Below are positions 9,516-22,810 of a stretch of 34,167 bases of DNA, one piece after another (position 1 is the stretch's first letter; the number at the start of each line of letters is the position of its first letter). The notes beneath the pieces were generated by a model, which saw nothing but the letters and a program-made list of their open reading frames with translations, made no database searches and was not told the origin of the DNA. A program made the translations under genes and the position numbers. The stretch comes from an uncultured Desulfobacteraceae bacterium. Lineage in GTDB: Bacteria; Desulfobacterota; DSM-4660; Desulfatiglandales; B25-G16. Location: NCBI GenBank assembly GCA_964393665.1, contig CAYMVB010000077.1:1-34167 (forward strand), given 5' to 3'.

Positions 9516-10610
9516 CTAATCTTGGGCCATCTTCCTTACCCTGTTATCAAGGTATTCAGAAAGATTGGCAGAATTTTCAGGCGACCACCCAAAGGATTGC
9601 TTCCATACGTCATCACTTTCCATACAAAGATACATGCCTAAATCATTGTGCCATTTGTTTAATCGTTCTGATAGCTTAGAATACATTTCGATTCTAATAG
9701 GTTTAAAATATCTCATTTTACCATCAAGTCCTGGCACAAACTCTCCATTAAATATGTTTGTATTGGGAAACCTTGACTTAATATCCCATTTAAGTTGAGG
9801 CATATACCTAAAAGAACCCATACTAATCCATATAATGGACTCAGGGTTTATGTATTTTTCAAGCAATCTGACTACGCCGTAATATTCATCCTCCCACCCA
9901 TCATATTGTATGAGCGGGTCGAAATGAAATGCAAGCAAAAAACCAGCCTCCTGGCATTTTTTCGCCGCTAATATTCTGCTCTTTAGGTTGGCAGTCATTA
10001 ATTCCTCTTTTTCTACTATTTTTTGTGTGTTTAATGACCATGCCATTACAATCCTTTTCCTATAATCACCTTTAATAATATTGCTTATACAGGTGGTCTT
10101 TGTTTTTAACTCCAAAATAGTATTCTGTCTTGAAGAGAAAAATGGAAGGAGAAAATCAGACCACCCTGTAATGTGGTCAAGGGCTAGGCTGTCTGTAAAC
10201 TCACCGGTTCCTATTCTAAAAATTTTCTCAGGTTTGCTATCGATATATTCACCTATAACGCCCAGTTGCTCTTTTATATTAGTGAAAATTCTCAATGATG
10301 GCTGATTAACATAAGATTGTAGGAAACAATAACTGCAGTCCATTGGGCAATTCACGCCGACATGTAAAATTTTGTAGCCGCAGCATATATACCGTTTTGT
10401 GCCCGGGCAAGGCTTCAAAAATTCACCATTAAAATGAGTAAGCCTGAGGGATTTCTTGTCCATGAAATCTTGGCAGTCTATTAAGGCAAGGTCATCGGGT
10501 TCAACCCTAGTAATTTTTACACCCGGAAGTCTTTGCGTTATCTTTTTTGTAAGAACGTCAGATTCTGCATTTCCTTCAGCTAAAATTCTCGTAATGTTAA
10601 ATCTTCTCAC
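9516..10610 (-). CDS. Spore photoproduct lyase (SplB)-like radical SAM protein
   Basis: CPMDCSYCFLQ (CxxxCxxC), DSLALDHIT, LELKTK, WSLN, RILAAKK..EAGF.LAFHFDP, DGWEDEY resemble SplB. GTG start at 10610 has GGGGAG upstream and overlaps the upstream stop (GTGA). Confidence 0.82.
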   Translation of the reverse strand: MRRFNITRILAEGNAESDVLTKKITQRLPGVKITRVEPDDLALIDCQDFMDKKSLRLTHFNGEFLKPCPGTKRYICCGYKILHVGVNCPMDCSYCFLQSYVNQPSLRIFTNIKEQLGVIGEYIDSKPEKIFRIGTGEFTDSLALDHITGWSDFLLPFFSSRQNTILELKTKTTCISNIIKGDYRKRIVMAWSLNTQKIVEKEELMTANLKSRILAAKKCQEAGFLLAFHFDPLIQYDGWEDEYYGVVRLLEKYINPESIIWISMGSFRYMPQLKWDIKSRFPNTNIFNGEFVPGLDGKMRYFKPIRIEMYSKLSERLNKWHNDLGMYLCMESDDVWKQSFGWSPENSANLSEYLDNRVRKMAQD

Positions 10611-11596
10611 GTATCTCCCCTGCCCTTCCAAAAATTAGGTACCTCTGATAACTCTGCTAATTTATGTAATTTGTTGATCTTGTCAGTAAGCTCCTCACCA
10701 CGTGAAAAATCTATTTCAAGCCGGTAATTGACACCTTCGAAGAAAGGCGGAGAGATTACGTTGACTCCCGATGGTAGAGAAAGTCGATCAAGGCCGTTTT
10801 TAAAGGCCATGTGTGCCTCTGAGAGCAATGGGAAACGTCTATTTTTTAATACCGCTGTTATTGCCTTTACTTTTTGTGGTTTATTCATATTGGTATCTGC
10901 TACTATTTCTTGTACATCGCTGCTGTTAATTATATCTGTTATTACTTGCCCTTCCCTTCTGGAAATTTCTTCTAAATATTGAAAGAGTTGTACCTGTTGA
11001 TTAATACTGAACTTCAAGGAATTGAAAAGGCTACTTATGCCTAAACGGCTTTCCCTATCAATATTTGCCATAAGGCCTGCAACCTTTAGTGATACTGCGT
11101 TTCTTGCAACCGAAACCTTAACTATTTCCTCTAACATATTTAAATTAAGATATAATAGCAGGCTATGCCTGTTCGCAGGTATCGTAAGTAGCGGCAAATA
11201 TTTTTCTATAATTTCTTCCTTCTTTAAAAAATTAACCAGCCTATCCAGTATCATAGCCTTTTCAATGCTATTGAATTCGCGATGCAGGAGGTTATCGTCC
11301 AGGTTAAACAACAGGGCATCGTGCTCGGTAAAACTATCTGGTAACACGTTGCATTCCGCACCCTTCCATCCAAGCTCATGTGCTGCCAGCAATCTTTTAT
11401 AGCCTGTTACTACAGAGTATGAGTTGTCCAGATTTTTTATAAGATACGGGGGGTTTATAATGCCATATTTTGAAATAGATTTTTTAAGTATCTCAAGGTC
11501 AAAGTCAAAGCTCATACAAAATGGGCCATCAGGCAGCAAATTGACCTCCGGGATGTTTATTCTTACATTATGAGCCTTTATTGGTCTTGTTTCCAT
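10607..11596 (-). CDS. ParB/Srx N-terminal-domain protein with extended helical C-terminus
   Basis: LKKSISKYGIINPP and YSVVTGYKRLLAA (GxxRxxA), DNLLHREFNSIEKA. ATG 11596 preferred (GAAGGT upstream); the ORF extends to 11611. Confidence 0.78.
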   Translation of the reverse strand: METRPIKAHNVRINIPEVNLLPDGPFCMSFDFDLEILKKSISKYGIINPPYLIKNLDNSYSVVTGYKRLLAAHELGWKGAECNVLPDSFTEHDALLFNLDDNLLHREFNSIEKAMILDRLVNFLKKEEIIEKYLPLLTIPANRHSLLLYLNLNMLEEIVKVSVARNAVSLKVAGLMANIDRESRLGISSLFNSLKFSINQQVQLFQYLEEISRREGQVITDIINSSDVQEIVADTNMNKPQKVKAITAVLKNRRFPLLSEAHMAFKNGLDRLSLPSGVNVISPPFFEGVNYRLEIDFSRGEELTDKINKLHKLAELSEVPNFWKGRGDT

Positions 11597-11620
11597 AAAA
11601 ATTACCTTCAAAATAGTGAA

Positions 11621-11932: not shown

Positions 11933-13912
11933 TCATGCAGCTACCCTCATTTCATCGTGTTTTACGATACTTTTTTCATATATAAAGACAAAACAACCAA
12001 GGATTATTCCTATACCTATTTTTATTGGGTCATTCGTAAAACAAAGTAATGCTCCTGCAACCAGTATGATTCTCATGCCTGCACCGAGACTTTTTACTAA
12101 ATAGCCCATAGTTCCTGCTGCAATCATATAGACGCCCACTGTTGCAGTGGTAACGGAAAAGATAATGTTTGGCACTGATCCCAATAATAAAAGTGACGTG
12201 TTAAAAATGAACATAAAGGGCAGGATATATTTTACAATAGCAAGCCTTACAGATATCCATGCAGTTTCCAGCCAATCTGCCTCCGCTATGCCTGCGGCTA
12301 CAAACACCCCAGGGCAGACCGGTGGTGTAAGGACTGATAGGATCGCAAAGTAAAGCACAAACATATGGGTCGCAACAGGGTTAAACCCCATTTGTATAAG
12401 GGATGGCGCAACAACAGCCGCACTCAATAGATATGCCGCAGGAGTAGGAACCCCCATTCCCAGCATAAGTGCCACGATGGCCGCAAGACCTAAAGCAAGA
12501 AATGTGTTGCTGCCGCTAAGGCCAATTATAATTTCAGAGATATTCACTCCAATGCCTGTTAGGGTAATAAGGGAGACAATTATATTAGCACAGACCAAAA
12601 GTGGGACGATTTTTATAAGTGACCTGCCGACATTATCCATGCCTTTTATAAGGTTTAATGCCCTTTTTCTTATCTCAGATAAGCTAAAGGTCGAAAATAC
12701 ATGGAGTATTGAAAGAACTGCAATTGCCCAGAAAGCTGATGTTTCCGGTGTATATCCCTTCACCATCAATGCAATAAGAAGTATGACAGGTATTACTAAT
12801 GGTATAGAGCGGGATGGCCGTAATATTTCAGCCAGGCGCTTGATATAACCGTCTGGGACTCTTTCAAGATTGCGCCTGGCACTTTCAAAGTGTATGGCAA
12901 AAAAGACGGATGTAAAAAATAAATAGGCTGGGATCAACGCACATATTGCAACTTGAATGTATGATATTTCAAGAAGCTCTGCCATTAAAAAGGCTGCGGA
13001 ACCCATTATAGGAGGAGTTATCTGCCCACCCGCAGATGCTGTGGCTTCAACTCCTGCCGAGAATTCATTTCCATATTTTAATTTTTTCATGAGAGGGATT
13101 GTAAAATTTCCCGTTGTGGCAGTATTTGCTACGGCGGACCCTGAAAGCATTCCAAAGAATGCACTAACTACTACTGAAACCTTTGCGGCGCCCCCAAAAA
13201 ACTTTCCCGTAAAACGCAGCGCTAAATCCATAAATGTGTTACCAGCACCAGTGGAAAGTAAAAATCCTCCAAATATAATAAATATAGCAACAATAGTAGA
13301 AGATACCCCTGTTACAAATCCCCAAAGTCCCTGGTCACTTAAATACATAACCTGGATGATATGTTTCATGCTAAAGCCTCTGTGACCCCAGTAAGAAAAA
13401 TAATCACCTATTACTGGTATGTCCGGAATGTATTGGCCAAAGAGTGCATAAAAGAGAAAGAGCAGGGTTAACACGGGAAAGATTATTCCTATTGTTCTTC
13501 GCCCTGCCTCCAATGCAAGAATAAACGCTGCTGTTCCCAGAAATAACTGTAAATTTGTTGATTCAGCAGGATGCTCCATTATCCAGTCATAATTAAAAAG
13601 AATATAGCCACATGATACAATAGCCGTTATAATTAAAAGAATGTCTATACCAAGGAGCACAGAGGGCCACAGGCCTTTGCCCTTTTTTTTCATAAACCCC
13701 ATCAGGGAAAATGTAAGAATCAAGGCAAAACCTACATGTACTGCTCTTTGCTTTAAGTTCGGCAATGGACCGGCAAAGCCAGTGTAAATATGAAACATGA
13801 CAAACAGTATAGCTACTGCACTAAGGATAATTCTCCATGTTCCATTAAGATTGTGCTGGTCTGATTTTGTGCTATGTTCTGCTACTTCACTTTGGTTAGT
13901 TTCAAGGGACAT
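11933..13912 (-). CDS. TRAP transporter fused 4TM/12TM permease (TAXI type)
   Basis: Highly hydrophobic; GGAAKVSVV.S, SGSAVAN, EATASAGGQITPPIMGSAAFLMAE, LGMGVPTPAAY, HMFVLYF, TPPVC. Confidence 0.92.
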   Translation of the reverse strand: MSLETNQSEVAEHSTKSDQHNLNGTWRIILSAVAILFVMFHIYTGFAGPLPNLKQRAVHVGFALILTFSLMGFMKKKGKGLWPSVLLGIDILLIITAIVSCGYILFNYDWIMEHPAESTNLQLFLGTAAFILALEAGRRTIGIIFPVLTLLFLFYALFGQYIPDIPVIGDYFSYWGHRGFSMKHIIQVMYLSDQGLWGFVTGVSSTIVAIFIIFGGFLLSTGAGNTFMDLALRFTGKFFGGAAKVSVVVSAFFGMLSGSAVANTATTGNFTIPLMKKLKYGNEFSAGVEATASAGGQITPPIMGSAAFLMAELLEISYIQVAICALIPAYLFFTSVFFAIHFESARRNLERVPDGYIKRLAEILRPSRSIPLVIPVILLIALMVKGYTPETSAFWAIAVLSILHVFSTFSLSEIRKRALNLIKGMDNVGRSLIKIVPLLVCANIIVSLITLTGIGVNISEIIIGLSGSNTFLALGLAAIVALMLGMGVPTPAAYLLSAAVVAPSLIQMGFNPVATHMFVLYFAILSVLTPPVCPGVFVAAGIAEADWLETAWISVRLAIVKYILPFMFIFNTSLLLLGSVPNIIFSVTTATVGVYMIAAGTMGYLVKSLGAGMRIILVAGALLCFTNDPIKIGIGIILGCFVFIYEKSIVKHDEMRVAA

Positions 13913-14035: not shown

Positions 14036-15034
14036 TTATCTCGCCTCCGGAGGTATTGCTACTGCAGGTATATTTTTTGCTCCAAGTTCAGAATATGCCC
14101 TGAGCGCACCTTTATGAAGGGGGATAAGTGTCAGATCTGCAGGATCCTGAACGAGATCAAGCTCTTTGAATGCCGGCCATGCAGATATCTGGAATTCCTT
14201 GCCTTTTATGATTGCATGAACTAACTTATAGGCAAGGTCATCGTTTAGTCCCTTATCACACATCACTCCTATAGGCCTCCCCCACATTGTATATGCCGGC
14301 TGATTGGGCATAGCCTTTATCCCACCTTCCGGAACAGTAATAAATGAAATGTAGGGGATTTCAGCTAAAATTTTCTCAGTGTGCTCTTTTGTTAGCGGGA
14401 TAAGTCGCAACTTCGTAAGTGTCATTATATCTAACGTTGATGAGTCAATCTGGGTTCCTATCCCTGTTTTTACATAACCTACGATTCTGTTGTCTTTTAT
14501 TGCCTTAACAGCATCGGATACTGCACCGATATGATAATCAGGTTTTACTCCCAGAATATTAAATATCTGTTTTGTCGTAGCCTCTGAAGCGGAGCCTCTA
14601 ATTCCAGGATTGAATTTTTTACCGTTAAGGTCTTCAAGTTTTTTAACGCCACTATCTTCTCTGACCACAATAAAATCTATGCCCACTGCATAGAGCCACA
14701 GTAATCTTAAATCCGGTAAAGGATTATCCTTCCACCTTGACAAACCCTGCCATGCTTCATACATAATTTTCATAGAGCAAATGCCCATATCGATTTCCTT
14801 GGCTTTAACCCTCGTGAGGTTGTCCACGCTTGCTCCTGTCTCAACAACATTTACCTTTACATCTGGTGTATATTTATTTATCGCTTTTGCGGCGCCAACA
14901 ACATATGCGTAGTGACTTGACGCTGCTGAACTTGCCCCAAAAAATAAATATGCCTTTTTCGCCTCAGACGTCACTGGTAATGTTAGAATTAACAATGCGA
15001 TAAAGACAAAAAAGAATCCTCTATATTTTTTCAT
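14036..15034 (-). CDS. TAXI family TRAP solute-binding protein
   Basis: Signal peptide (..SEA|K), ETGASVDN, DLRLL, DLNGKK, GSASE, IPLHKGALRAY; AGGAGG upstream. Confidence 0.92.
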   Translation of the reverse strand: MKKYRGFFFVFIALLILTLPVTSEAKKAYLFFGASSAASSHYAYVVGAAKAINKYTPDVKVNVVETGASVDNLTRVKAKEIDMGICSMKIMYEAWQGLSRWKDNPLPDLRLLWLYAVGIDFIVVREDSGVKKLEDLNGKKFNPGIRGSASEATTKQIFNILGVKPDYHIGAVSDAVKAIKDNRIVGYVKTGIGTQIDSSTLDIMTLTKLRLIPLTKEHTEKILAEIPYISFITVPEGGIKAMPNQPAYTMWGRPIGVMCDKGLNDDLAYKLVHAIIKGKEFQISAWPAFKELDLVQDPADLTLIPLHKGALRAYSELGAKNIPAVAIPPEAR

Positions 15035-15109: not shown

Positions 15110-15469
15110 TTACCGTAATGATTCTTTTACCTCTATTTGCAGTTTATTTGGTTTCGTTTTTTTCCAGGTATTTACGTTAAATGTATAATTTTCCCCTGCA
15201 GGAACCAAATTTGGCTGGCCTTTTTTTCCTGATGCGGTAAATTGTGGCACTTGATCATCGGCCTGAACAGCCAAATAAAAGGGCTTATCTTTGCCGGATA
15301 TATTTTTTATAGTTACATATACATAATAATTTCCCTTTTCATCTGCTTTACACTCAACTTTCTCTATCTTAGCGCTATCCACACTTTTTTTCTTGATGCC
15401 AGTTGAAAAAGCACTACAGGATACCAGTAAAAAAATCAGTATCAAAGGAAACGCACGCAATCTTTTCAT
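15110..15469 (-). CDS. Hypothetical lipoprotein, probably a beta-sandwich
   Basis: MKRLR, hydrophobic core and LVSC lipobox; VTIKN.S and VPAGE..TF patterns; AAGGAG upstream. Confidence 0.7.
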   Translation of the reverse strand: MKRLRAFPLILIFLLVSCSAFSTGIKKKSVDSAKIEKVECKADEKGNYYVYVTIKNISGKDKPFYLAVQADDQVPQFTASGKKGQPNLVPAGENYTFNVNTWKKTKPNKLQIEVKESLR

Positions 15470-15525: not shown

Positions 15526-16737
15526 TTACCAGATTATTAATTGACGAGGAAATTTATTCAGGATTTCAAAGCCTTCCTCATTAACAAGCACCATATCACC
15601 AATAACTCCTGCTGCCTCATTTGGAATAAAAAGATTAGGGTGAAGCTCAAAAAGCATTCCGTTTTGAATTTTAATGGGCGATTTGTTTTGTTCTTGTTTC
15701 TCGATATCTATATTTTTTAACAAATACGGGTTTGGAAAGGCATCTGAGAGAATTGGATCATTATAGTCAAGACCCAGGCTATGACCTGTTTTTAGCCAAT
15801 ACCAATCAAGGTCTCTTACATCAGGATAATATTTTCTTAATACATTGTCAGATGCCCTCCAAACTTCATTAAGGTCTAATCCAGGCTTCATGCAGTTCAA
15901 TGCCGCTTCTTCCATCTCCAGAACAATAGTAAACACCCGTAATTGGTCTTTATTAGGGCCCCCAATAGTGCCTGTCCTTATCGTGTGCCCCCAATGCCCT
16001 TCGTACATAATAAAAAGTGCTATGAGCACTTGATCGCCCTTTTGCGGCACCCTGTTGCATTCCCTTCTTGCATATCGTGGCCTATCTGCAACTGGCCTGA
16101 TGCTCAAAAAGGTTGAGGCGTGTTCACAGCCCTCATATTTTGCAGTGTGTTCCAGGTCAGCCTGAAGCTGGTAAACCTTTTTACCCTTCCCTATCTCCCT
16201 CGTAAGAGTCTCAAGCATTGCGTCACAGATTTCAGCCGCACGCTGGTGAAAAATAATCTGAATGGTATCTTTAATAATTCTCTGTTCATCTATAATTTTG
16301 CTTGCTTCAATTAATTCTATACCCTCTGCATCCTCTCGCAACCTATCATAGACAGGTGCTGGTGTCTCATCGCGGCCGATATAACCGATTTTTTTATTTT
16401 TTGAAAAAAGAGAATGAACACCTGTTATTATTTCCTGGCCTAATTTTGCCTGTGGGGTAACTCGGATATCGTCAAACCATAGTGTTTCCTTGGCATACAG
16501 TTGAGCAGATCGCATGGTAACTAATAGTATAGGGTCTTTTTCCGGTACCACGATCAGTACAGACGGTAAATTTCTTCCATCCCACCCACAAAGATAGCGT
16601 ATGTATCCATGAGTACGGCTGCCATTACCCAGCATGCTTCCTGTAGAATATATAACAAGGCCTTGAAGATTACGGCTCTGCATTTTTTCAGCGGTATTCT
16701 TCAAGCGTTCCTTAAATATTGAATTTGGTATTTTCAA
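15526..16737 (-). CDS. M24/creatinase-fold protein with non-canonical metal ligands (TTG start)
   Basis: Creatinase N-domain (ERL....KM...L.GL, YIRYLCG), R.IK, pita-bread motifs GDQVLIAL...GHWGHTIRT, KPG, GHSLGLD, GMLFELHP, IGDMVLV..EG.E.L. Confidence 0.8.
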   Translation of the reverse strand: MKIPNSIFKERLKNTAEKMQSRNLQGLVIYSTGSMLGNGSRTHGYIRYLCGWDGRNLPSVLIVVPEKDPILLVTMRSAQLYAKETLWFDDIRVTPQAKLGQEIITGVHSLFSKNKKIGYIGRDETPAPVYDRLREDAEGIELIEASKIIDEQRIIKDTIQIIFHQRAAEICDAMLETLTREIGKGKKVYQLQADLEHTAKYEGCEHASTFLSIRPVADRPRYARRECNRVPQKGDQVLIALFIMYEGHWGHTIRTGTIGGPNKDQLRVFTIVLEMEEAALNCMKPGLDLNEVWRASDNVLRKYYPDVRDLDWYWLKTGHSLGLDYNDPILSDAFPNPYLLKNIDIEKQEQNKSPIKIQNGMLFELHPNLFIPNEAAGVIGDMVLVNEEGFEILNKFPRQLIIW

Positions 16738-16766: not shown

Positions 16767-17141
16767 TTATTCTAAAAACGTTCGATCAGGGTTATCCGTG
16801 TCAAAGGCAGGGGCATATATAGAGAGGATAATGCAAGCAAATCTCAATGCATGGGGGGTTCCTTTTGGGACAAAAAAAACATCGCCTTTTTTGAGGATTT
16901 TCTTCTCATCTCCAATGACTACCTCGCCTTCGCCATCCAGCAATTGTATAATTTCATCGTGATCTTTATGAATATGTAATGGGATACCATGTACACTGTC
17001 CGCCATCTGTACCGCATTTAATGTACAGTGCTCACCATGGTGGAGAAATGTATAGTTAATATTGTGCTTTTCATCCCTCCCATCCTCTGCCTTGCGGGCC
17101 TTTTCTAAAACCTCTGAGGCTGACCAAAAATTATCTGCCAT
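16767..17141 (-). CDS. Cupin domain protein
   Basis: HIHKDHDEIIQLLDGEG and GDVFFVPKGTPH motifs; H, H, E, H ligands intact. Confidence 0.88.
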   Translation of the reverse strand: MADNFWSASEVLEKARKAEDGRDEKHNINYTFLHHGEHCTLNAVQMADSVHGIPLHIHKDHDEIIQLLDGEGEVVIGDEKKILKKGDVFFVPKGTPHALRFACIILSIYAPAFDTDNPDRTFLE

Positions 17142-17212: not shown

Positions 17213-18538
17213 CTAATTAAGCATTAATTTAGGAAGCCATAAGGTTAATTGAGGGAATATATATAATAATATCAAAGTCGGTAATTCAATAAATAGATAA
17301 GGAACAACTCCTTTTATTATATCACCGTCTGTAACCTCCGGAGGGGCAACACCTTTTAGAAAAAATATATTATATGCAAATGGTGGCGTTATATATGACA
17401 TCTTTAAGACAACGCAAAAAAGCAACGCAAACCATACGGGCTCGGCACCTATTGTTTTAAGTATGGGAACAAATATAGGAACTATTACTAATAGTATGCC
17501 AATCCAATCCATAAACATACCTAAAACGAAAACCAGCATCAGCATAATCATGATTGAAACAAGCTTATTGCCTCCACTAATACCAAAGATAAATGCTTCT
17601 ATCACATCCGCGCCGCCTAAAGCCATAAACGATGTAGTAAAAAATCCGGCAAGCAACATGATCATAAATACCATGCCGCAGGTTTTTGCAAGGGTGAGAA
17701 GTGCCTTTTGCATGGTTTCAAAATTTAAATGGCCATAAAAGGCAGTCAGGATTACCGAGATAAAGGCTCCGACACCGGCTGCTTCAGTAGGGGAGGCAAT
17801 TCCTGCGAATATTGAACCGAGGACGCCCAGAATAAGGGCTACAGGAGGAAAAAGATCTCTAATTATTAAAAAAAGGATCGTGCCCTTTGCTACCTCTTTT
17901 CGAGTCTCAGGAGGTAATGGTGGGCCTAGCTTCGGATTGATTGCACATCTTATAGCGATATAGGTCAAATAGGATAACCCTAATATGAGGCCGGGTATTA
18001 CCGCTGCTATAAAAAGACGAGCAATTCCAATTCCTGAAGCAGGCCCGTACAAAATCAGCATTATGCTGGGCGGGATAATAACCCCTAAGCCACCTCCTCC
18101 TGCGATACATCCTGCAACCATGCTCTTATCATAATTGCGGGATAGCATTGCAGGCATGGCAACAAGGCCCATCATGACGACTGTTGTCCCTGCTATCCCG
18201 GTACAGGCATCGAAGATGATAATTGCTATCATAGTACCTAAAAGCAGTCCACCTTTTAAGCGGCCCATTAAAAGATGCATGGTGCTGTATAATCTTTCAG
18301 CTATTCCCGCCTGCTCTAACATGCATCCCATAAAGATAAAAAGTGTGATAGCCTCCATTTCGTAGCTTGTCATCATGGTCATTGTACGGGCGGGAAGCAT
18401 TGCAATGAGGTCCATACCCCACGCAATATATCCAAATATCAATGCTAAAATGCCTAAAACAAATGCAACATGAAAACCGGCTATTATGAGGCCTATAAGG
18501 CCTAAAAACATTATTACGGCAAGTTGTGTCTCTGTCAT
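17213..18538 (-). CDS. dctM: TRAP transporter large permease DctM
   Basis: LFIFMG..LEQAGIAERL, GGLGVIIPPS, LF.AA.IPG, GIASPTEAAGVGA, LGMFMDW, ITPPF. Confidence 0.92.
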   Translation of the reverse strand: MTETQLAVIMFLGLIGLIIAGFHVAFVLGILALIFGYIAWGMDLIAMLPARTMTMMTSYEMEAITLFIFMGCMLEQAGIAERLYSTMHLLMGRLKGGLLLGTMIAIIIFDACTGIAGTTVVMMGLVAMPAMLSRNYDKSMVAGCIAGGGGLGVIIPPSIMLILYGPASGIGIARLFIAAVIPGLILGLSYLTYIAIRCAINPKLGPPLPPETRKEVAKGTILFLIIRDLFPPVALILGVLGSIFAGIASPTEAAGVGAFISVILTAFYGHLNFETMQKALLTLAKTCGMVFMIMLLAGFFTTSFMALGGADVIEAFIFGISGGNKLVSIMIMLMLVFVLGMFMDWIGILLVIVPIFVPILKTIGAEPVWFALLFCVVLKMSYITPPFAYNIFFLKGVAPPEVTDGDIIKGVVPYLFIELPTLILLYIFPQLTLWLPKLMLN

Positions 18539-19038
18539 TATTCCTTCCCTTTTATGACCACTGATAGGCTGCGGATAAATTCTGCTATCCCCTGAAGACC
18601 TAACAGGCCAAAGGCTACCGGAATCATCGTTTTAATGGGATAAACAGGGGCTCCTACGGTTGTATGCCATGAGCATTCCTTTATTTCCCATGCGGTTTTA
18701 GCAAATGAAATGCCATAAAAAACCAAGAACCCGCATATAGTCAAGAGAAATAAGTAGGAAATAGAAGTAATTATTGCCTGCATCCTCGGAGGGTATAGCT
18801 TAAATAATGGGTCTACCCTGACATGTCCTTTTTCTACAAGTGTATAGGTAAATGCGAAAAGAAAAACCATGGAGTAGAACATCCAAGCCAGCTCAAAGGA
18901 CCAGTCATCTCCCCTGTGAAAAAAATATCGCTCTACAACTATGGCAACAGTAACGAGCATCTGAAAAACAACAAACCAGCTTGAAACGTTGCCTGATAAG
19001 CGACTAAGCGTGTCAATATATTTCAAAAAACGATTCAT
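18538..19038 (-). CDS. dctQ: TRAP transporter small permease DctQ
   Basis: Four TM segments, V.RY, W..EL, GHVRVD, PVYPIKT.IP; 1-nt overlap with dctM. Confidence 0.9.
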   Translation of the reverse strand: MNRFLKYIDTLSRLSGNVSSWFVVFQMLVTVAIVVERYFFHRGDDWSFELAWMFYSMVFLFAFTYTLVEKGHVRVDPLFKLYPPRMQAIITSISYLFLLTICGFLVFYGISFAKTAWEIKECSWHTTVGAPVYPIKTMIPVAFGLLGLQGIAEFIRSLSVVIKGKE

Positions 19039-19121: not shown

Positions 19122-20189
19122 TTACCAAGGCTCTATGGCATATTCTTTATATTTGTCAAAAAAGACTTTTTGGTGATCAAGTATCTTTTTGGCCCAGGGA
19201 TCACCCGTGGCAATAATTCTATTTCTCGCTCTTTCTGTTGCTTTCTCAAATTCCGCCTGCATTTCCGGTGTTACCTTGATTACCTCCCATTTGTCCTGCC
19301 ATTTTTCGGCCATAACTTGATCCATATATCCACCATATTCAAAGGCATGCCACATGCTTGCATCTGCAGCATATTTAACTACCTTCTTAAGGTCATCCGG
19401 CAGTGCCTTCCATGAATCCATATTTATAAATATCTGGACGGTGGCCCCAACAGGCTGATGAATAGCTCCAACCAGCACGTATTTGGCGACATCCTCTATG
19501 CCTGATTTTGAATCTATGTAAAATGAGCTCATTTCGCAGGCATCCAATTCGCCTCTTGACATGGCCGGTGTCACATCGGTCATAGGTATAGAAACACACG
19601 TACATCCCAATTCTTCAAAGAAAACCTTATTTAAACCTGAGGTTCTAATCTTAAGCCCTTTAAAATCCTCAATTTTCCTAAGAGGCTTAATTGAATAAAC
19701 AGCCTCAGAGGCCGTGATGACAACTGGAAAACTTGTAAGATTGAATTTGCTTTGGAAATATTCATTATAGAGGTCTAAGCCTCCTCCCTCGTATAGGTAT
19801 CGTACTTGTGAAAAAATGCTCTCATTTGTCCATCCAGGCCTACTTCCAATGGAAAGCCCTGCGTACGGTAACGTGCCGGCAACATACATACCGCTATTAT
19901 GGGTCAAATCCAATCTTCCCGCTGATGTCTCAGTCATGGCCTCTATTGGCCCTACTATTTCTCCACAGGCAAACATCTTTGGGATTACGAGGCGGCCACC
20001 ACTCATTTTATTAAGTGCTTCAACAAAATATTCTGCCTCATCATGAAAAGCATCACCACGGTTCCACGCTGATTGTGCCCTCCATTTAATCACCTCATCC
20101 TTTGCTTGTGCTGGTCTTTCACAAACGATAATGAAAAAGGTAAAGGCAACTGCCACTAACATAAACAATGAAAACCATCTTTTTGTCAT
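19122..20189 (-). CDS. dctP: TRAP solute-binding protein DctP (TakP/FcbT1-like subfamily)
   Basis: Signal peptide (..AQA|K), IKWRAQSAW, MSGGRL, EDFKGLKIRTSG (conserved Arg), W.ALPDDLK. Start set at ATG 20189 with GGAGGA upstream. Confidence 0.9.
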   Translation of the reverse strand: MTKRWFSLFMLVAVAFTFFIIVCERPAQAKDEVIKWRAQSAWNRGDAFHDEAEYFVEALNKMSGGRLVIPKMFACGEIVGPIEAMTETSAGRLDLTHNSGMYVAGTLPYAGLSIGSRPGWTNESIFSQVRYLYEGGGLDLYNEYFQSKFNLTSFPVVITASEAVYSIKPLRKIEDFKGLKIRTSGLNKVFFEELGCTCVSIPMTDVTPAMSRGELDACEMSSFYIDSKSGIEDVAKYVLVGAIHQPVGATVQIFINMDSWKALPDDLKKVVKYAADASMWHAFEYGGYMDQVMAEKWQDKWEVIKVTPEMQAEFEKATERARNRIIATGDPWAKKILDHQKVFFDKYKEYAIEPW

Positions 20190-20293
20190 TTTTTCCTCCA
20201 TCTTTAAAAAATTATCACTCGATAGTTCTTTCCGATATACGTATTTTTTTAGAATGAATTCCTCCTTTCTCTTTAAGGTTAAACACATCCGTT

Positions 20294-20971
20294 TTAATTA
20301 CTTTGTCCCCTCTGGTTTCTATCTAAAATCTTTTTTTTTAGAAAATCAAAGGTGAAATTGATATGTTCTTTCATAAATTTTTTTGCTTTTGAATATTCGC
20401 CGTTCTTAATAAAGTCCAAAATTTGATTATGCTCCTCAATAGAGCGCCTGCCAGAAGTAGGGATATATAAATAAATGAATTGATACCTGGCCAAATGAGA
20501 AGAAATTGAATTATAAAAATGAATAACCCAGTTATTTCCAGTGGAATCAATAAGCTTTATATGAAAATCTACAAACGCCTCAAGGTAGCTGAATATCTCC
20601 TCGCTGTTATCCTGAGAAGGCGTGGACAGACGTGATGCTGCTTCCACTGAGGCAATGACACTGGGGAGAGTTTTTATGTTTTTCGCCTTTAATATATCAA
20701 TAGAATAGCACTCGAGCATTTCCCTTGTCTGATAAATATTTTCCAGGTCTTCTATTGAGATCGTGGTAACATTAGTCCCCTTTCTTGGACTATTTATAAC
20801 GAGATGCTCATTTTCCAAAATCCTCAAAGCCTCACGTATTGGAGGTCTGCTGATTTTAAGGCGGGCCGCTAAATCTGTTTCATTGATTCTCTGCCCAGCA
20901 GCTATCTCGCCTGTTATTATTTGTTTCCTTAGATATTCTGTTGCAATACTTGTTACGGTTTTAATTTCCAT
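20294..20971 (-). CDS. GntR family regulator with FCD domain
   Basis: LR..IITG...GQRINE.DLA.RL.ISRPPIREAL..L helix-turn-helix; RE.LE, FH, GN, EH in the FCD domain. Confidence 0.92.
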   Translation of the reverse strand: MEIKTVTSIATEYLRKQIITGEIAAGQRINETDLAARLKISRPPIREALRILENEHLVINSPRKGTNVTTISIEDLENIYQTREMLECYSIDILKAKNIKTLPSVIASVEAASRLSTPSQDNSEEIFSYLEAFVDFHIKLIDSTGNNWVIHFYNSISSHLARYQFIYLYIPTSGRRSIEEHNQILDFIKNGEYSKAKKFMKEHINFTFDFLKKKILDRNQRGQSN

Positions 20972-21155: not shown

Positions 21156-21560
21156 CTATTTCTCTAAAACTTCTATAACGCCTGATGTGGCATCAACCTT
21201 GACGTAATCATCAGTTTTTATGACTGCAACTACATTAACGTCGGGGCGATCAACAGCAGGGATTTCTGTTGCTATTACTGCGCCGGATAGGACCGGTTCA
21301 CTTTCGAGACAAATTATGGCAGCGGGTGCCTTCCCGTTTTTCTTTGCATTCCAGGCAGCAAAATCGCAGCCACTGGAGCCTTTTCCAGTCGTAAATACAA
21401 AAATCTTATAAGCTAAATTTACCCCCTGCAATTTATGGCGAGGCATACAAATCTTACCTGTGACAGGGTCCAGATCTCCCAAAAAAGCGAAAGGACCATC
21501 GTATACAACAGCCCTCCCTTCTGCCTTGCCGGCACTTACCATATGTGCTTTTATTTCCAT
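21156..21560 (-). CDS. Aconitase X swivel (small) subunit, DUF126
   Basis: G.AEG.A.V, F.FLGDLDP.TG.I...H.L.G.NL..KI.VF..GKGSS, APAAII, IPAVD. ATG 21560 overlaps the end of the large-subunit gene. Confidence 0.88.
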   Translation of the reverse strand: MEIKAHMVSAGKAEGRAVVYDGPFAFLGDLDPVTGKICMPRHKLQGVNLAYKIFVFTTGKGSSGCDFAAWNAKKNGKAPAAIICLESEPVLSGAVIATEIPAVDRPDVNVVAVIKTDDYVKVDATSGVIEVLEK

Positions 21561-22810
21561 TTTGGTATTTCTCCGTTCCACGTTCCTGTTATGGCAGCAT
21601 GTATGCATTCTTCCTCAGTACCAAAAAATACCTTGACACCACAGACAGAGGCAATATAATGCGCACTTCGCGCAGAGTTTGTCGCAGCACTTTTTGCTTG
21701 CTTGTCCCCAGCAATATCCGCCCTGGTGAAAGGATTTGCAATAGAAGGACAGGCAGGGAGAAAGTGGCCTCCTGCCTTCTCAATAATAGTTGCCCAGCCC
21801 TGCTGCCTTGCGAGGGCTTCAACAGGTGCGGAGGCCCCTATCAACATGGATGTTCTTAAGGTTTTACCGTCAACAAGGGAGGCTATTCGTCCAATCTCAT
21901 CAATCGTTGCATGGGGACATCCAAAGGCGACGTGTTCTACGTTATCATCATCCCATACATTAAGCCTTTCCCATGTTTCTTGCATTTCTCGTTTTCCAAC
22001 CTTAATTACCTGCTGATTTTTTCTATTTCCCAGGGCTGCCTCGAGTGTAGGCGCTTCTGGTGTGGTACCCACGATATGCGCCAGCGTAACAGCGCCTGAG
22101 CTAGGCATTGATATGACTAATGCCCTGGCAAAATCAAATGGTATATTCGGTGGCAACCCTTTTACTGCAATAGGCTTGAAGCCTGGTACCTGATCGCCAA
22201 TATAGTAGCCAAGACAGTGATAATGCGCAATAGTCCAGTCTGATATGTCCAAATCCTCCACATCAACGATATAGTCTGCGTAACGGTTTTCAGGGATAAG
22301 CAGGCCCATTAATGGAGTTCGGCCGCATACTGCGGCAGCTAAAGATACAAGAATTCCCATTCTATCCACTCTTGCGCCAAACAGGCTATTGTTGGCTACC
22401 TGCATGCAGCTCCCACCCATAGGCACTATATCACCTTTTCTTGGGAATATACCAAGAAGATACTCGGCACAGGTCTCTGTGCGTAACCATCCCAGCTCAA
22501 GATACCGTTTTAGTTTTTCATTATGTTCCTTCTCCCAGGTACCCGCGAAACTCAAACCCCACTCTTTCCACTTCTCAGGGGAATAAGACGGATGAGTAGT
22601 AACCCTGTGCGGGGTGCTGGTTAGATCCTCTGTAAACATATCCCAGAAATCCTTCGGACAAAAGTCATAGCTGATGTGTGCATACGTAATCGGGCTTAAT
22701 CTCTCTGCATCAAAGGAATCTCCAAGTTTCACTATTAGTTCTATTGATCTCTGAACACCACTTCCATATTTCCCACCGAGCATCCGTTTTTCTTCATCCG
22801 TAAGAACCAT
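21551..22810 (-). CDS. Aconitase X catalytic (large) subunit, DUF521
   Basis: LTDEEKRML.G, AHIS, TCAEY, NSLFGAR, AAAVCGRTP, SGAV.L.HIVG.TPEA, GCPH, PAC, TNSAR.AHY. Confidence 0.88.
   Translation of the reverse strand: MVLTDEEKRMLGGKYGSGVQRSIELIVKLGDSFDAERLSPITYAHISYDFCPKDFWDMFTEDLTSTPHRVTTHPSYSPEKWKEWGLSFAGTWEKEHNEKLKRYLELGWLRTETCAEYLLGIFPRKGDIVPMGGSCMQVANNSLFGARVDRMGILVSLAAAVCGRTPLMGLLIPENRYADYIVDVEDLDISDWTIAHYHCLGYYIGDQVPGFKPIAVKGLPPNIPFDFARALVISMPSSGAVTLAHIVGTTPEAPTLEAALGNRKNQQVIKVGKREMQETWERLNVWDDDNVEHVAFGCPHATIDEIGRIASLVDGKTLRTSMLIGASAPVEALARQQGWATIIEKAGGHFLPACPSIANPFTRADIAGDKQAKSAATNSARSAHYIASVCGVKVFFGTEEECIHAAITGTWNGEIPKWK

Follow-up and report, generated by a model that had tools for sequence, protein, structure and literature searches.

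The window analysed here covers positions 1 to 34,167 of contig CAYMVB010000077.1 (GenBank assembly GCA_964393665.1), from an uncultured Desulfobacteraceae bacterium. It carries, all on the minus strand and in this order, genes for the large and swivel subunits of aconitase X, a GntR/FCD regulator, the transporter components DctP, DctQ and DctM, a cupin, an M24B-fold protein, a predicted lipoprotein, and the binding protein and permease of a TAXI-family tripartite ATP-independent periplasmic (TRAP) transporter. The M24B-fold protein, for which we use the working name M24x, is the subject of this analysis. Its open reading frame (ORF; 15526..16737, minus strand) encodes 403 amino acids from a TTG start, with AAGGA located 8 nt upstream, and homologues share the same M-K/T-I-P beginning. 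The original prediction had described this ORF as an M24-fold protein in which the dimetal ligands are replaced by a potential three-histidine site, and the motifs that it quoted (VLIALF, WGHTIRT, GHSLGLDYND, ELHPN and VIGD) are all found in the translation.

The fold itself is clear from several lines of evidence. Pfam searches detected over their cut-offs a Creatinase_N domain at residues 11 to 155 (PF01321; E value of 7e-11, 43 bits) and a pita-bread Peptidase_M24 domain at residues 165 to 387 (PF00557; 3e-27, 96 bits), and this combination, together with the fold match, places M24x in M24B. The AlphaFold2 model, built from a 43-row alignment, had a mean predicted local distance difference test score (pLDDT) of 92.1 and a predicted template modeling (TM) score of 0.91. 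When it was compared to solved structures with Foldseek (TM scores normalised by target length), the Pyrococcus horikoshii prolidase 1wy2 gave 0.86 to 0.88, the EutD ectoine hydrolase 6twk 0.77 to 0.78, and creatinase 1chm 0.75 to 0.76, with identities to these two-domain M24B enzymes of 16 to 22%. The top phmmer match in the PDB was again 1wy2 (E value of 5.7e-20), and both creatinase and ectoine hydrolase, named at the outset as precedents for repurposing of this fold, appeared as relatives in phmmer and Foldseek.

To locate the metal-binding positions, residue equivalences were established in three ways: by phmmer against 1wy2, by hhalign of a 43-row family profile against Escherichia coli K-12 PepP (98% probability over 367 aligned columns), and by adding PepP with mafft to the 125-row alignment described below. 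In mature-protein numbering, all three agree that PepP Asp260, Asp271, Glu383 and Glu406 correspond to Ala240, His251, His366 and Gly380 of M24x, and that His354 is retained as His319. The resulting pattern, A-H-H-H-G, departs from the five dimetal ligands of M24B (Asp, Asp, His, Glu, Glu) everywhere except at the histidine. The earlier proposal that all four carboxylate ligands are lost and that two of them are now histidines is thus borne out. The helper histidines of PepP are gone as well, with His361 replaced by Asn326 in all three alignments and His243 by Arg221 in hhalign (the mafft alignment has a gap in PepP there).

The codons concerned all lie on the minus strand. His251 (15985..15987) takes the place of Asp271, a bridging metal ligand; His319 (15781..15783) is the ligand kept; and His366 (15640..15642) stands for Glu383. 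Two residues ahead of His366, on the same strand of the protein, Glu364 (15646..15648) is specific to the family, replacing a threonine of PepP, and might serve as general base or as a fourth ligand. Ala240 (16018..16020) occupies the position of Asp260, which in PepP serves the second metal exclusively, and Gly380 (15598..15600) that of Glu406, a bridging ligand. Tyr325 (15763..15765) falls within GLDYND, the counterpart of GLDVHD in PepP. In the PepP and methionine aminopeptidase (MetAP) structures, Asp271, His354 and Glu383 ligate one and the same metal ion, the tight-binding first metal (M1). Because His251, His319 and His366 fill these three columns, we infer that they cluster around the former M1 site.

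Such a site could be a relic of decay, and conservation was the property expected to reveal it. A homologue search recovered 151 proteins at an E value of ≤1e-5 among 4,249 candidates, ranging from 100% to 40% identity over the best 120 listed, and from these 120 we chose the 43 full-length rows of the family profile so as to spread across the identity range. When a single genome of each species was scanned, 108 pattern matches were obtained, and 59 of these were confirmed (58 loci). These 59 sequences are 25 to 89% identical to M24x, with a mean pairwise identity of 40%. Their hosts are Desulfobacterota and Alpha-, Beta- and Gammaproteobacteria, among them cultured strains of Bosea, Xanthobacter, Variovorax, Paracandidimonas, Pigmentiphaga, Roseomonas and the Roseobacter group. 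Invariance is confined to 18 of the 381 well-filled columns, and this small set includes His251, His319, His366, Glu364, Tyr325, Gly380, Arg254, Trp249, Asp235 and Pro367, each present in 59/59 sequences. Position 240 is always small (Gly in 45, Ala in 7 and Ser in 7), position 248 is His in 48 and Tyr in 11, and the N-domain residues His43 and Arg47 are each kept in 56/59. In the helper columns, position 221 is Arg in 57 and His in 2, and position 326 is Asn, Ser or Glu. The loop around Arg221 (residues 218 to 226; 16060..16086, minus strand) is also well preserved, with Asp218 in 58/59, Arg221 in 57/59 and Glu226 in 57/59. Since the histidine triad is invariant down to 25% identity, simple decay, the outcome that would have undone the original reading, can be rejected.

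The same design extends to a much larger group. An exhaustive search against representative sequences returned 3,972 proteins at an E value of ≤1e-3, 581 at ≤1e-10 and 75 at ≤1e-30. For the survey we aligned M24x with 124 of the best 150 listed representatives, namely those of at least 330 amino acids (26 shorter ones were dropped). Among these 125 rows, positions 251/319/366 read H-H-H in 56 and Q-H-H in 35; a further 14 rows were canonical (D-D-H-E-E), and 20 had other patterns. A FastTree phylogeny rooted on the canonical rows separated, with a Shimodaira-Hasegawa-like (SH-like) support of 100, a branch of 104 rows containing all the H-H-H and Q-H-H sequences from 21 rows containing all the canonical ones; the tree was built quickly and leaves many forks open, and only its well-supported branches are reliable. 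M24x falls in a nested clade of 31 rows (28 H-H-H and 3 others; support of 100). Gly380 is present in nearly all H-H-H and Q-H-H rows of the larger clade, for which we propose the signature of a small residue or Glu at 240, His or Gln at 251, His319, His366 and Gly380, which M24x fits. Members come from Desulfobacterota, Alpha-, Beta- and Gammaproteobacteria and one Methanosarcinaceae metagenome-assembled genome (MAG), and are everywhere annotated as Xaa-Pro dipeptidase/aminopeptidase. One representative within the H-H-H clade, P0127, reads G-G-Q-Q-G, with Cys for Tyr325 and Ser for Glu364, and looks like a truly decayed member.

No curated family model describes these proteins: M24x and 39 representatives all scored far under every NCBIfam cut-off. 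The best score of M24x, 79.2 bits against the PepQ equivalog NF040821 (cut-off of 630), rules out that assignment, as do the scores for the ectoine hydrolase DoeA/EutD models (34.5 bits versus 613 for TIGR02993 and 34.6 versus 575 for NF038259) and for the PepP equivalog, also far under its cut-off. In the PDB, M24x and the Q-H-H representative P0225 matched canonical enzymes only, at about 20 to 30% identity, so that no solved structure with the variant site was found, and the ESM Atlas returned nothing beyond generic M24 clusters. Literature searches, whose coverage excludes most subscription journals, yielded nothing on the M24x family or its operons. The gene appears to be accessory, as it was detected at an E value of ≤1e-30 in 4 of 41 genomes (its own and 40 relatives). 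The same genome encodes a second M24B protein (contig C86:779-1933, plus strand) with the full canonical D-D-H-H-E-E set, which is probably the housekeeping Xaa-Pro peptidase.

M24x is most likely a homodimer. The predicted complex scored 0.92, against 0.00 for the best of three controls, passing a mark that was reached by 20/30 solved same-chain pairs and by 1/23 single chains; runs shared at least 95% of their contacts, and the partner had a pLDDT of 91. This result may reflect likeness to solved relatives alone, and dimers of a similar kind have been solved for creatinase, prolidase and DddP (PMC4108388). The predicted interface includes residues 35 to 39, 53 to 57 and 122 to 131, all of them conserved stretches of the N-domain, and the conserved loop 218 to 226 that covers the PepP His243 position. 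In the model, this loop of one chain would meet the conserved N-domain loops of its partner, and the two chains together probably complete the pocket.

The genes surrounding M24x serve the uptake and catabolism of small carboxylates. Immediately downstream, and also on the minus strand, are a predicted lipoprotein of 119 amino acids with the lipobox LVSC (15110..15469), which matched no family over cut-off in family-model searches and could be a TAXI accessory protein; the TAXI-family TRAP solute-binding protein (14036..15034; PF16868 with an E value of 2.6e-49, and TIGR02122 at 151 bits versus a cut-off of 84); and a fused TAXI-TRAP permease of 659 amino acids (11933..13912; PF06808, 9.8e-88). 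In the PDB, the binding protein matched only TAXI proteins, at E values of 1e-24 or weaker, with no clue to the ligand. On the upstream side, Pfam identified the 124-amino-acid cupin (16767-17141), DctM (17213-18538), DctQ (18538-19038), DctP (19122-20288), the GntR/FCD regulator (20294..20971) and the swivel (21156-21608) and large (21551-22810) subunits of aconitase X, again all on the minus strand. The nearest NCBIfam model to aconitase X was cis-3-hydroxy-L-proline dehydratase, at 189 bits versus a cut-off of 700. Directly downstream of the TAXI permease, a 334-amino-acid ORF with no family match overlaps by 25 bases a 371-amino-acid spore-photoproduct-lyase-like radical S-adenosylmethionine (SAM) gene (9516-11611, minus strand).

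Comparison of the loci with 8-kb flanks showed which of these neighbours recur. A component of a carboxylate transporter, either TRAP, TAXI or tripartite tricarboxylate transporter (TTT), was found in the fetched flanks of 57/59 loci, and no peptide transporter was found near M24x. In Desulfobacterota the usual order is GntR, M24x, the lipoprotein in some cases, TAXI binding protein and permease. The GntR cluster is present in 16/59 loci (immediately upstream of M24x in L003, L005, L008 to L010, L012 and L016), the TAXI binding protein adjoins M24x in 13/59, and the lipoprotein occupies the same place between the two in 10/59, with 63 to 97% identity. Eleven related loci carry, after the binding protein, a permease copy with 60 to 94% identity. 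DctPQM and the cupin separate the regulator from M24x in just two loci, the window and L001, which holds an 89%-identical relative, and aconitase X is likewise restricted to these two of the 59 loci. The link of aconitase X to M24x is weak, and aconitase X, DctPQM and the cupin were rejected as obligatory partners.

In seven Desulfobacterota loci, corrinoid-methyltransferase genes (a URO-D family protein, a B12-binding protein and a second URO-D) precede or follow the module. The set lies near the GntR-M24x-TAXI genes in L006, L008, L009, L010, L012 and L016 (for example, L012:1345-9803), with DUF6951 in L006 and L012 and a RACo-type activator in L006, and from its gene content it forms a complete-looking corrinoid demethylase set. 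The URO-D neighbours were nearest to a methylcobalamin:coenzyme M (CoM) methyltransferase and gave no clue to the substrate. Upstream of the module, L006 and L008 carry creatininase-family, PrpD-like, SAM-methyltransferase and FAD-oxidase/CCG genes. The genome to which the window belongs, which is 92.6% complete, has no match to the URO-D (HemE/MtaA) family, and corrinoid methyltransferases were therefore rejected as obligatory partners for this organism. Desulfobacterota commonly use the siroheme-dependent haem route.

A different operon is typical of Alpha- and Betaproteobacteria (L034 to L058; for example, L042:6471-15099), in which a LysR regulator is followed by M24x, DctPQM, DUF2848, an amidase-signature amidase and a UPF0317 "putative hydro-lyase" (Pfam D-Glu_cyclase). 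Of the 59 loci, 25 encode the amidase, 23 DUF2848 and 21 the hydro-lyase. No enzyme of this operon is known to have a described function in bacteria. DUF2848 had no PDB match and no mention in the literature searched, and nothing was found there on a bacterial operon with UPF0317/DUF1445. Other loci carry TctABC. HyuA/HyuB are encoded in four loci (nearest model caprolactamase, 544 bits versus a cut-off of 1,000), PuuE-like genes in L026, and a relative of the amidohydrolase-superfamily (cog1228-type) Xaa-Pro dipeptidase in L003 and L022 (310 and 274 bits versus 500). The DctP of L042 was weakly nearest to 4n4u, 2pfz and 2pfy (E values of 1e-14 to 1e-17), the last two of which we take to be Bordetella pertussis DctP6 and DctP7. 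The solved structures of B. pertussis DctP6 and DctP7 contain bound 5-oxoproline (PMC13274462). In L004 (1-7854), a 60%-identical homologue stands beside succinyl-CoA-synthetase-like, enoyl-CoA hydratase, MaoC dehydratase, DctPQM and citrate-lyase-beta/RipC-like genes, a context of an itaconate or citramalate type, unlike the other loci. Apparent fusions of M24x in L021 (668 amino acids) and L023 (676 amino acids) were discarded, as their N-terminal extensions match no family, and were treated as over-extension in ORF calling.

Given that decay is excluded, that the operons serve the uptake of small molecules and that a canonical M24B protein is encoded separately, M24x is probably not a peptidase but a so far uncharacterised hydrolase. 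The invariant triad and the large clade of the same design also favor the non-peptidase reading put forward originally. We propose that it is a functional cytoplasmic C-N hydrolase of the M24B fold, not a dimetal peptidase, and that it holds a single metal where M1 used to bind and has a small imported carboxylate as substrate; to this proposal as a whole we would give about an even chance of being correct. Replacement of Asp260 by Ala, Ser or Gly and of the bridging Glu406 by Gly, residues incapable of binding metal, has removed the second-metal site, while the first would have been rebuilt from the imidazoles of His251, His319 and His366. The mononuclear site, for which Zn, Fe, Ni or Mn are all possible, would activate a water molecule, with Glu364 acting as base or fourth ligand, and the bond hydrolysed would be the C-N linkage of an amide, ureide, amidine or lactam in a small carboxylate. 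In the window, the adjacent TAXI-TRAP transporter would deliver this substrate and the GntR/FCD regulator would control the module.

As a best guess, we would place the substrate among N-substituted proline, pyroglutamate or sarcosine-type compounds, because recurring partners in other lineages have five-membered N-heterocyclic or imino-acid carboxylates as their substrates. The weak resemblance of the L042 DctP to the proteins taken to be DctP6 and DctP7 points the same way. The partners considered here were the D-glutamate-cyclase-like hydro-lyase, the oxoprolinase/caprolactamase-like HyuAB, the PuuE-like ring amidohydrolases, the amidohydrolase-type Xaa-Pro dipeptidase relative, aconitase X and the amidase. 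This assignment is the weakest step of the proposal.

Several observations weigh against the proposal. The nearest sequences and folds to M24x remain those of genuine prolidases, and the geometry of His251, His319 and His366 is read from homology. Position 251 switches between His and Gln across the wider clade: on the tree, the H-H-H label changes 13 times (at least 10 of them forced by well-supported branches) and Q-H-H 11 times (at least 7), and a repeated exchange of this kind would be more usual for a hydrogen-bond donor than for a metal ligand. The basal rows of the 104-row clade are E-Q-H-H-G, with Glu at position 240. The methyltransferase link has no application in the organism of the window, and the neighbour sets vary by lineage (corrinoid methyltransferases, amidase with DUF2848, or aconitase X), a difference that makes a single substrate common to all lineages unlikely. 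The five-membered-ring theme is itself our synthesis of weak matches.

The switching at position 251 would fit a hydrogen-bonding role as well as a ligand role, and so keeps alive a metal-free mechanism, in which His251 (or Gln251), Tyr325, Glu364 and Asp327 would bind and polarise the substrate and one of them would serve as general acid/base. Creatinase, whose fold M24x shares (phmmer E value of 5e-7, with the TM scores given above), works without a metal, its former ligand positions binding the guanidinium group, and the loss of all four carboxylates has removed the preferred ligands of Mn and Co. Against this, three invariant imidazoles occupy exactly the positions that ligate the tight-binding metal of MetAP and PepP, position 251 never varies within the 59-sequence family, and Arg221 lies in the column of PepP His243, which is also that of the catalytic histidine of creatinase. 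We regard a metal-free enzyme as unlikely, and still as the most serious competitor to the mononuclear hydrolase.

M24x might also be an Xaa-Pro/Xaa-Hyp dipeptidase or N-acyl-proline acylase in which only the metal chemistry has changed. Besides the closeness of prolidases in sequence and fold, the upstream aconitase X, with its hydroxyproline-type nearest model, and the dipeptidase relative next to M24x in L003 and L022 would suit such an activity. However, aconitase X accompanies M24x in only 2/59 loci, four of the five ligands and both helper histidines (PepP His243 and His361) are replaced, the genome already encodes a canonical M24B protein, and the flanks hold carboxylate transporters in 57/59 loci and no peptide transporter. 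We find this explanation improbable.

Slightly less probable again is that the pita-bread scaffold here catalyses a reaction other than hydrolysis, as a lyase, isomerase or cyclase. The dimethylsulfoniopropionate (DMSP) lyase DddP shows that the fold supports lyase chemistry (PMC4108388), many hosts are marine (Roseobacter-group strains, Desulfobacterota and the Methanosarcinaceae MAG), and corrinoid methyltransferase genes lie near M24x in seven loci. On the other side, the DddP lyases keep invariant metal-binding residues (PMC4108388), which the M24x family does not, and the proteobacterial partners (amidase, hydro-lyase and HyuAB) indicate C-N chemistry. The family also occurs in anaerobes, which speaks against the kind of O2-dependent reaction that three-His iron sites typically perform. 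Finally, a catalytically dead binding protein such as the M24 relatives EBP1/PA2G4 and the Spt16 N-terminal domain, the latter among the weak sequence and fold matches, would account for the lost ligands, but it is very improbable given the invariant polar pocket (His251, His319, His366, Glu364, Tyr325, Asp235 and Arg254), the placement of the gene within transporter and catabolic operons and the confinement of real decay to isolated rows such as P0127.

Returning to the mononuclear C-N hydrolase, a bolder extension would be that M24x founds a new mechanistic class of ATP-free hydrolases with a mononuclear three-His (plus Glu) site, which would act on imported carboxylates by cleaving N-carbamoyl, N-amidino or N-acyl imino acids or by opening lactam or ureide rings. 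Anaerobes would use these enzymes as the gate to a hitherto undescribed route from, e.g., creatine, N-carbamoylsarcosine or N-methylproline-type compounds, and the corrinoid methyltransferases encoded nearby would demethylate the N-methyl amino acid that results. In Proteobacteria, the first step of a pathway with DUF2848, the amidase and the UPF0317 hydro-lyase, likewise undescribed, would fall to them. We hold this extension to be unlikely. What appears new is the active-site variant, the M24B fold being well known. To our knowledge, the M24 fold is a textbook scaffold of dimetal peptidases with few repurposings (creatinase, ectoine hydrolase, DddP and the non-catalytic EBP1/Spt16), and here a whole clade (91 of the 125 nearest representatives, M24x included) carries a His-rich site in place of the carboxylate dimetal site. 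If the proposal is true, a systematic misannotation would be corrected, an old fold would gain a new active-site solution, and there would be an entry to at least two conserved catabolic operons without described function, one of them tied to corrinoid methyltransferases in anoxic sediments. The cultured hosts (Bosea, Variovorax, Xanthobacter, Paracandidimonas and Pigmentiphaga) put the question within direct experimental reach.

Among known systems, M24x shares with the Xaa-Pro dipeptidases and aminopeptidase P (MEROPS M24B; 1wy2 and PepP) the two-domain architecture of Creatinase_N and pita-bread domains, together with a predicted homodimer. It retains the equivalent of PepP His354 and the arginine of the D-x-x-R-T motif (Arg254), and differs in D260A, D271H, E383H, E406G, H243R and H361N, as well as in the invariant Glu364 and Tyr325 and in operons devoted to the transport of small carboxylates rather than peptides. 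Creatinase, compared by E value and fold and weakly similar in sequence, is no peptidase either: it hydrolyses a C-N bond in a small N-substituted amino-acid carboxylate, much as we propose for M24x, and a creatininase-family gene upstream of M24x in L006 and L008 adds to the likeness. Creatinase is metal-free, with Glu at former ligand positions, a Glu262/Glu358 substrate clamp and its catalytic His232 in the column of Arg221. Ectoine hydrolase (DoeA/EutD, 6twk) has the same fold and hydrolyses a ring C-N bond of a carboxylate osmolyte, and ectoine is a TRAP substrate. Here the comparison covers fold and score; the PDB E value is 0.009, the DoeA model scores lie far under cut-off, and the best DoeA-scoring representative, P0266 (I-E-H-E-S), falls outside the H/Q-H-H clade. 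Creatinase forms an embracing homodimer like the one predicted for M24x, and DddP, also a homodimer of the M24 fold, has been repurposed to act on a small zwitterionic carboxylate (PMC4108388). DddP retains invariant metal-binding residues and a binuclear centre (PMC4108388), whereas four of the five canonical ligands are missing from the M24x family.

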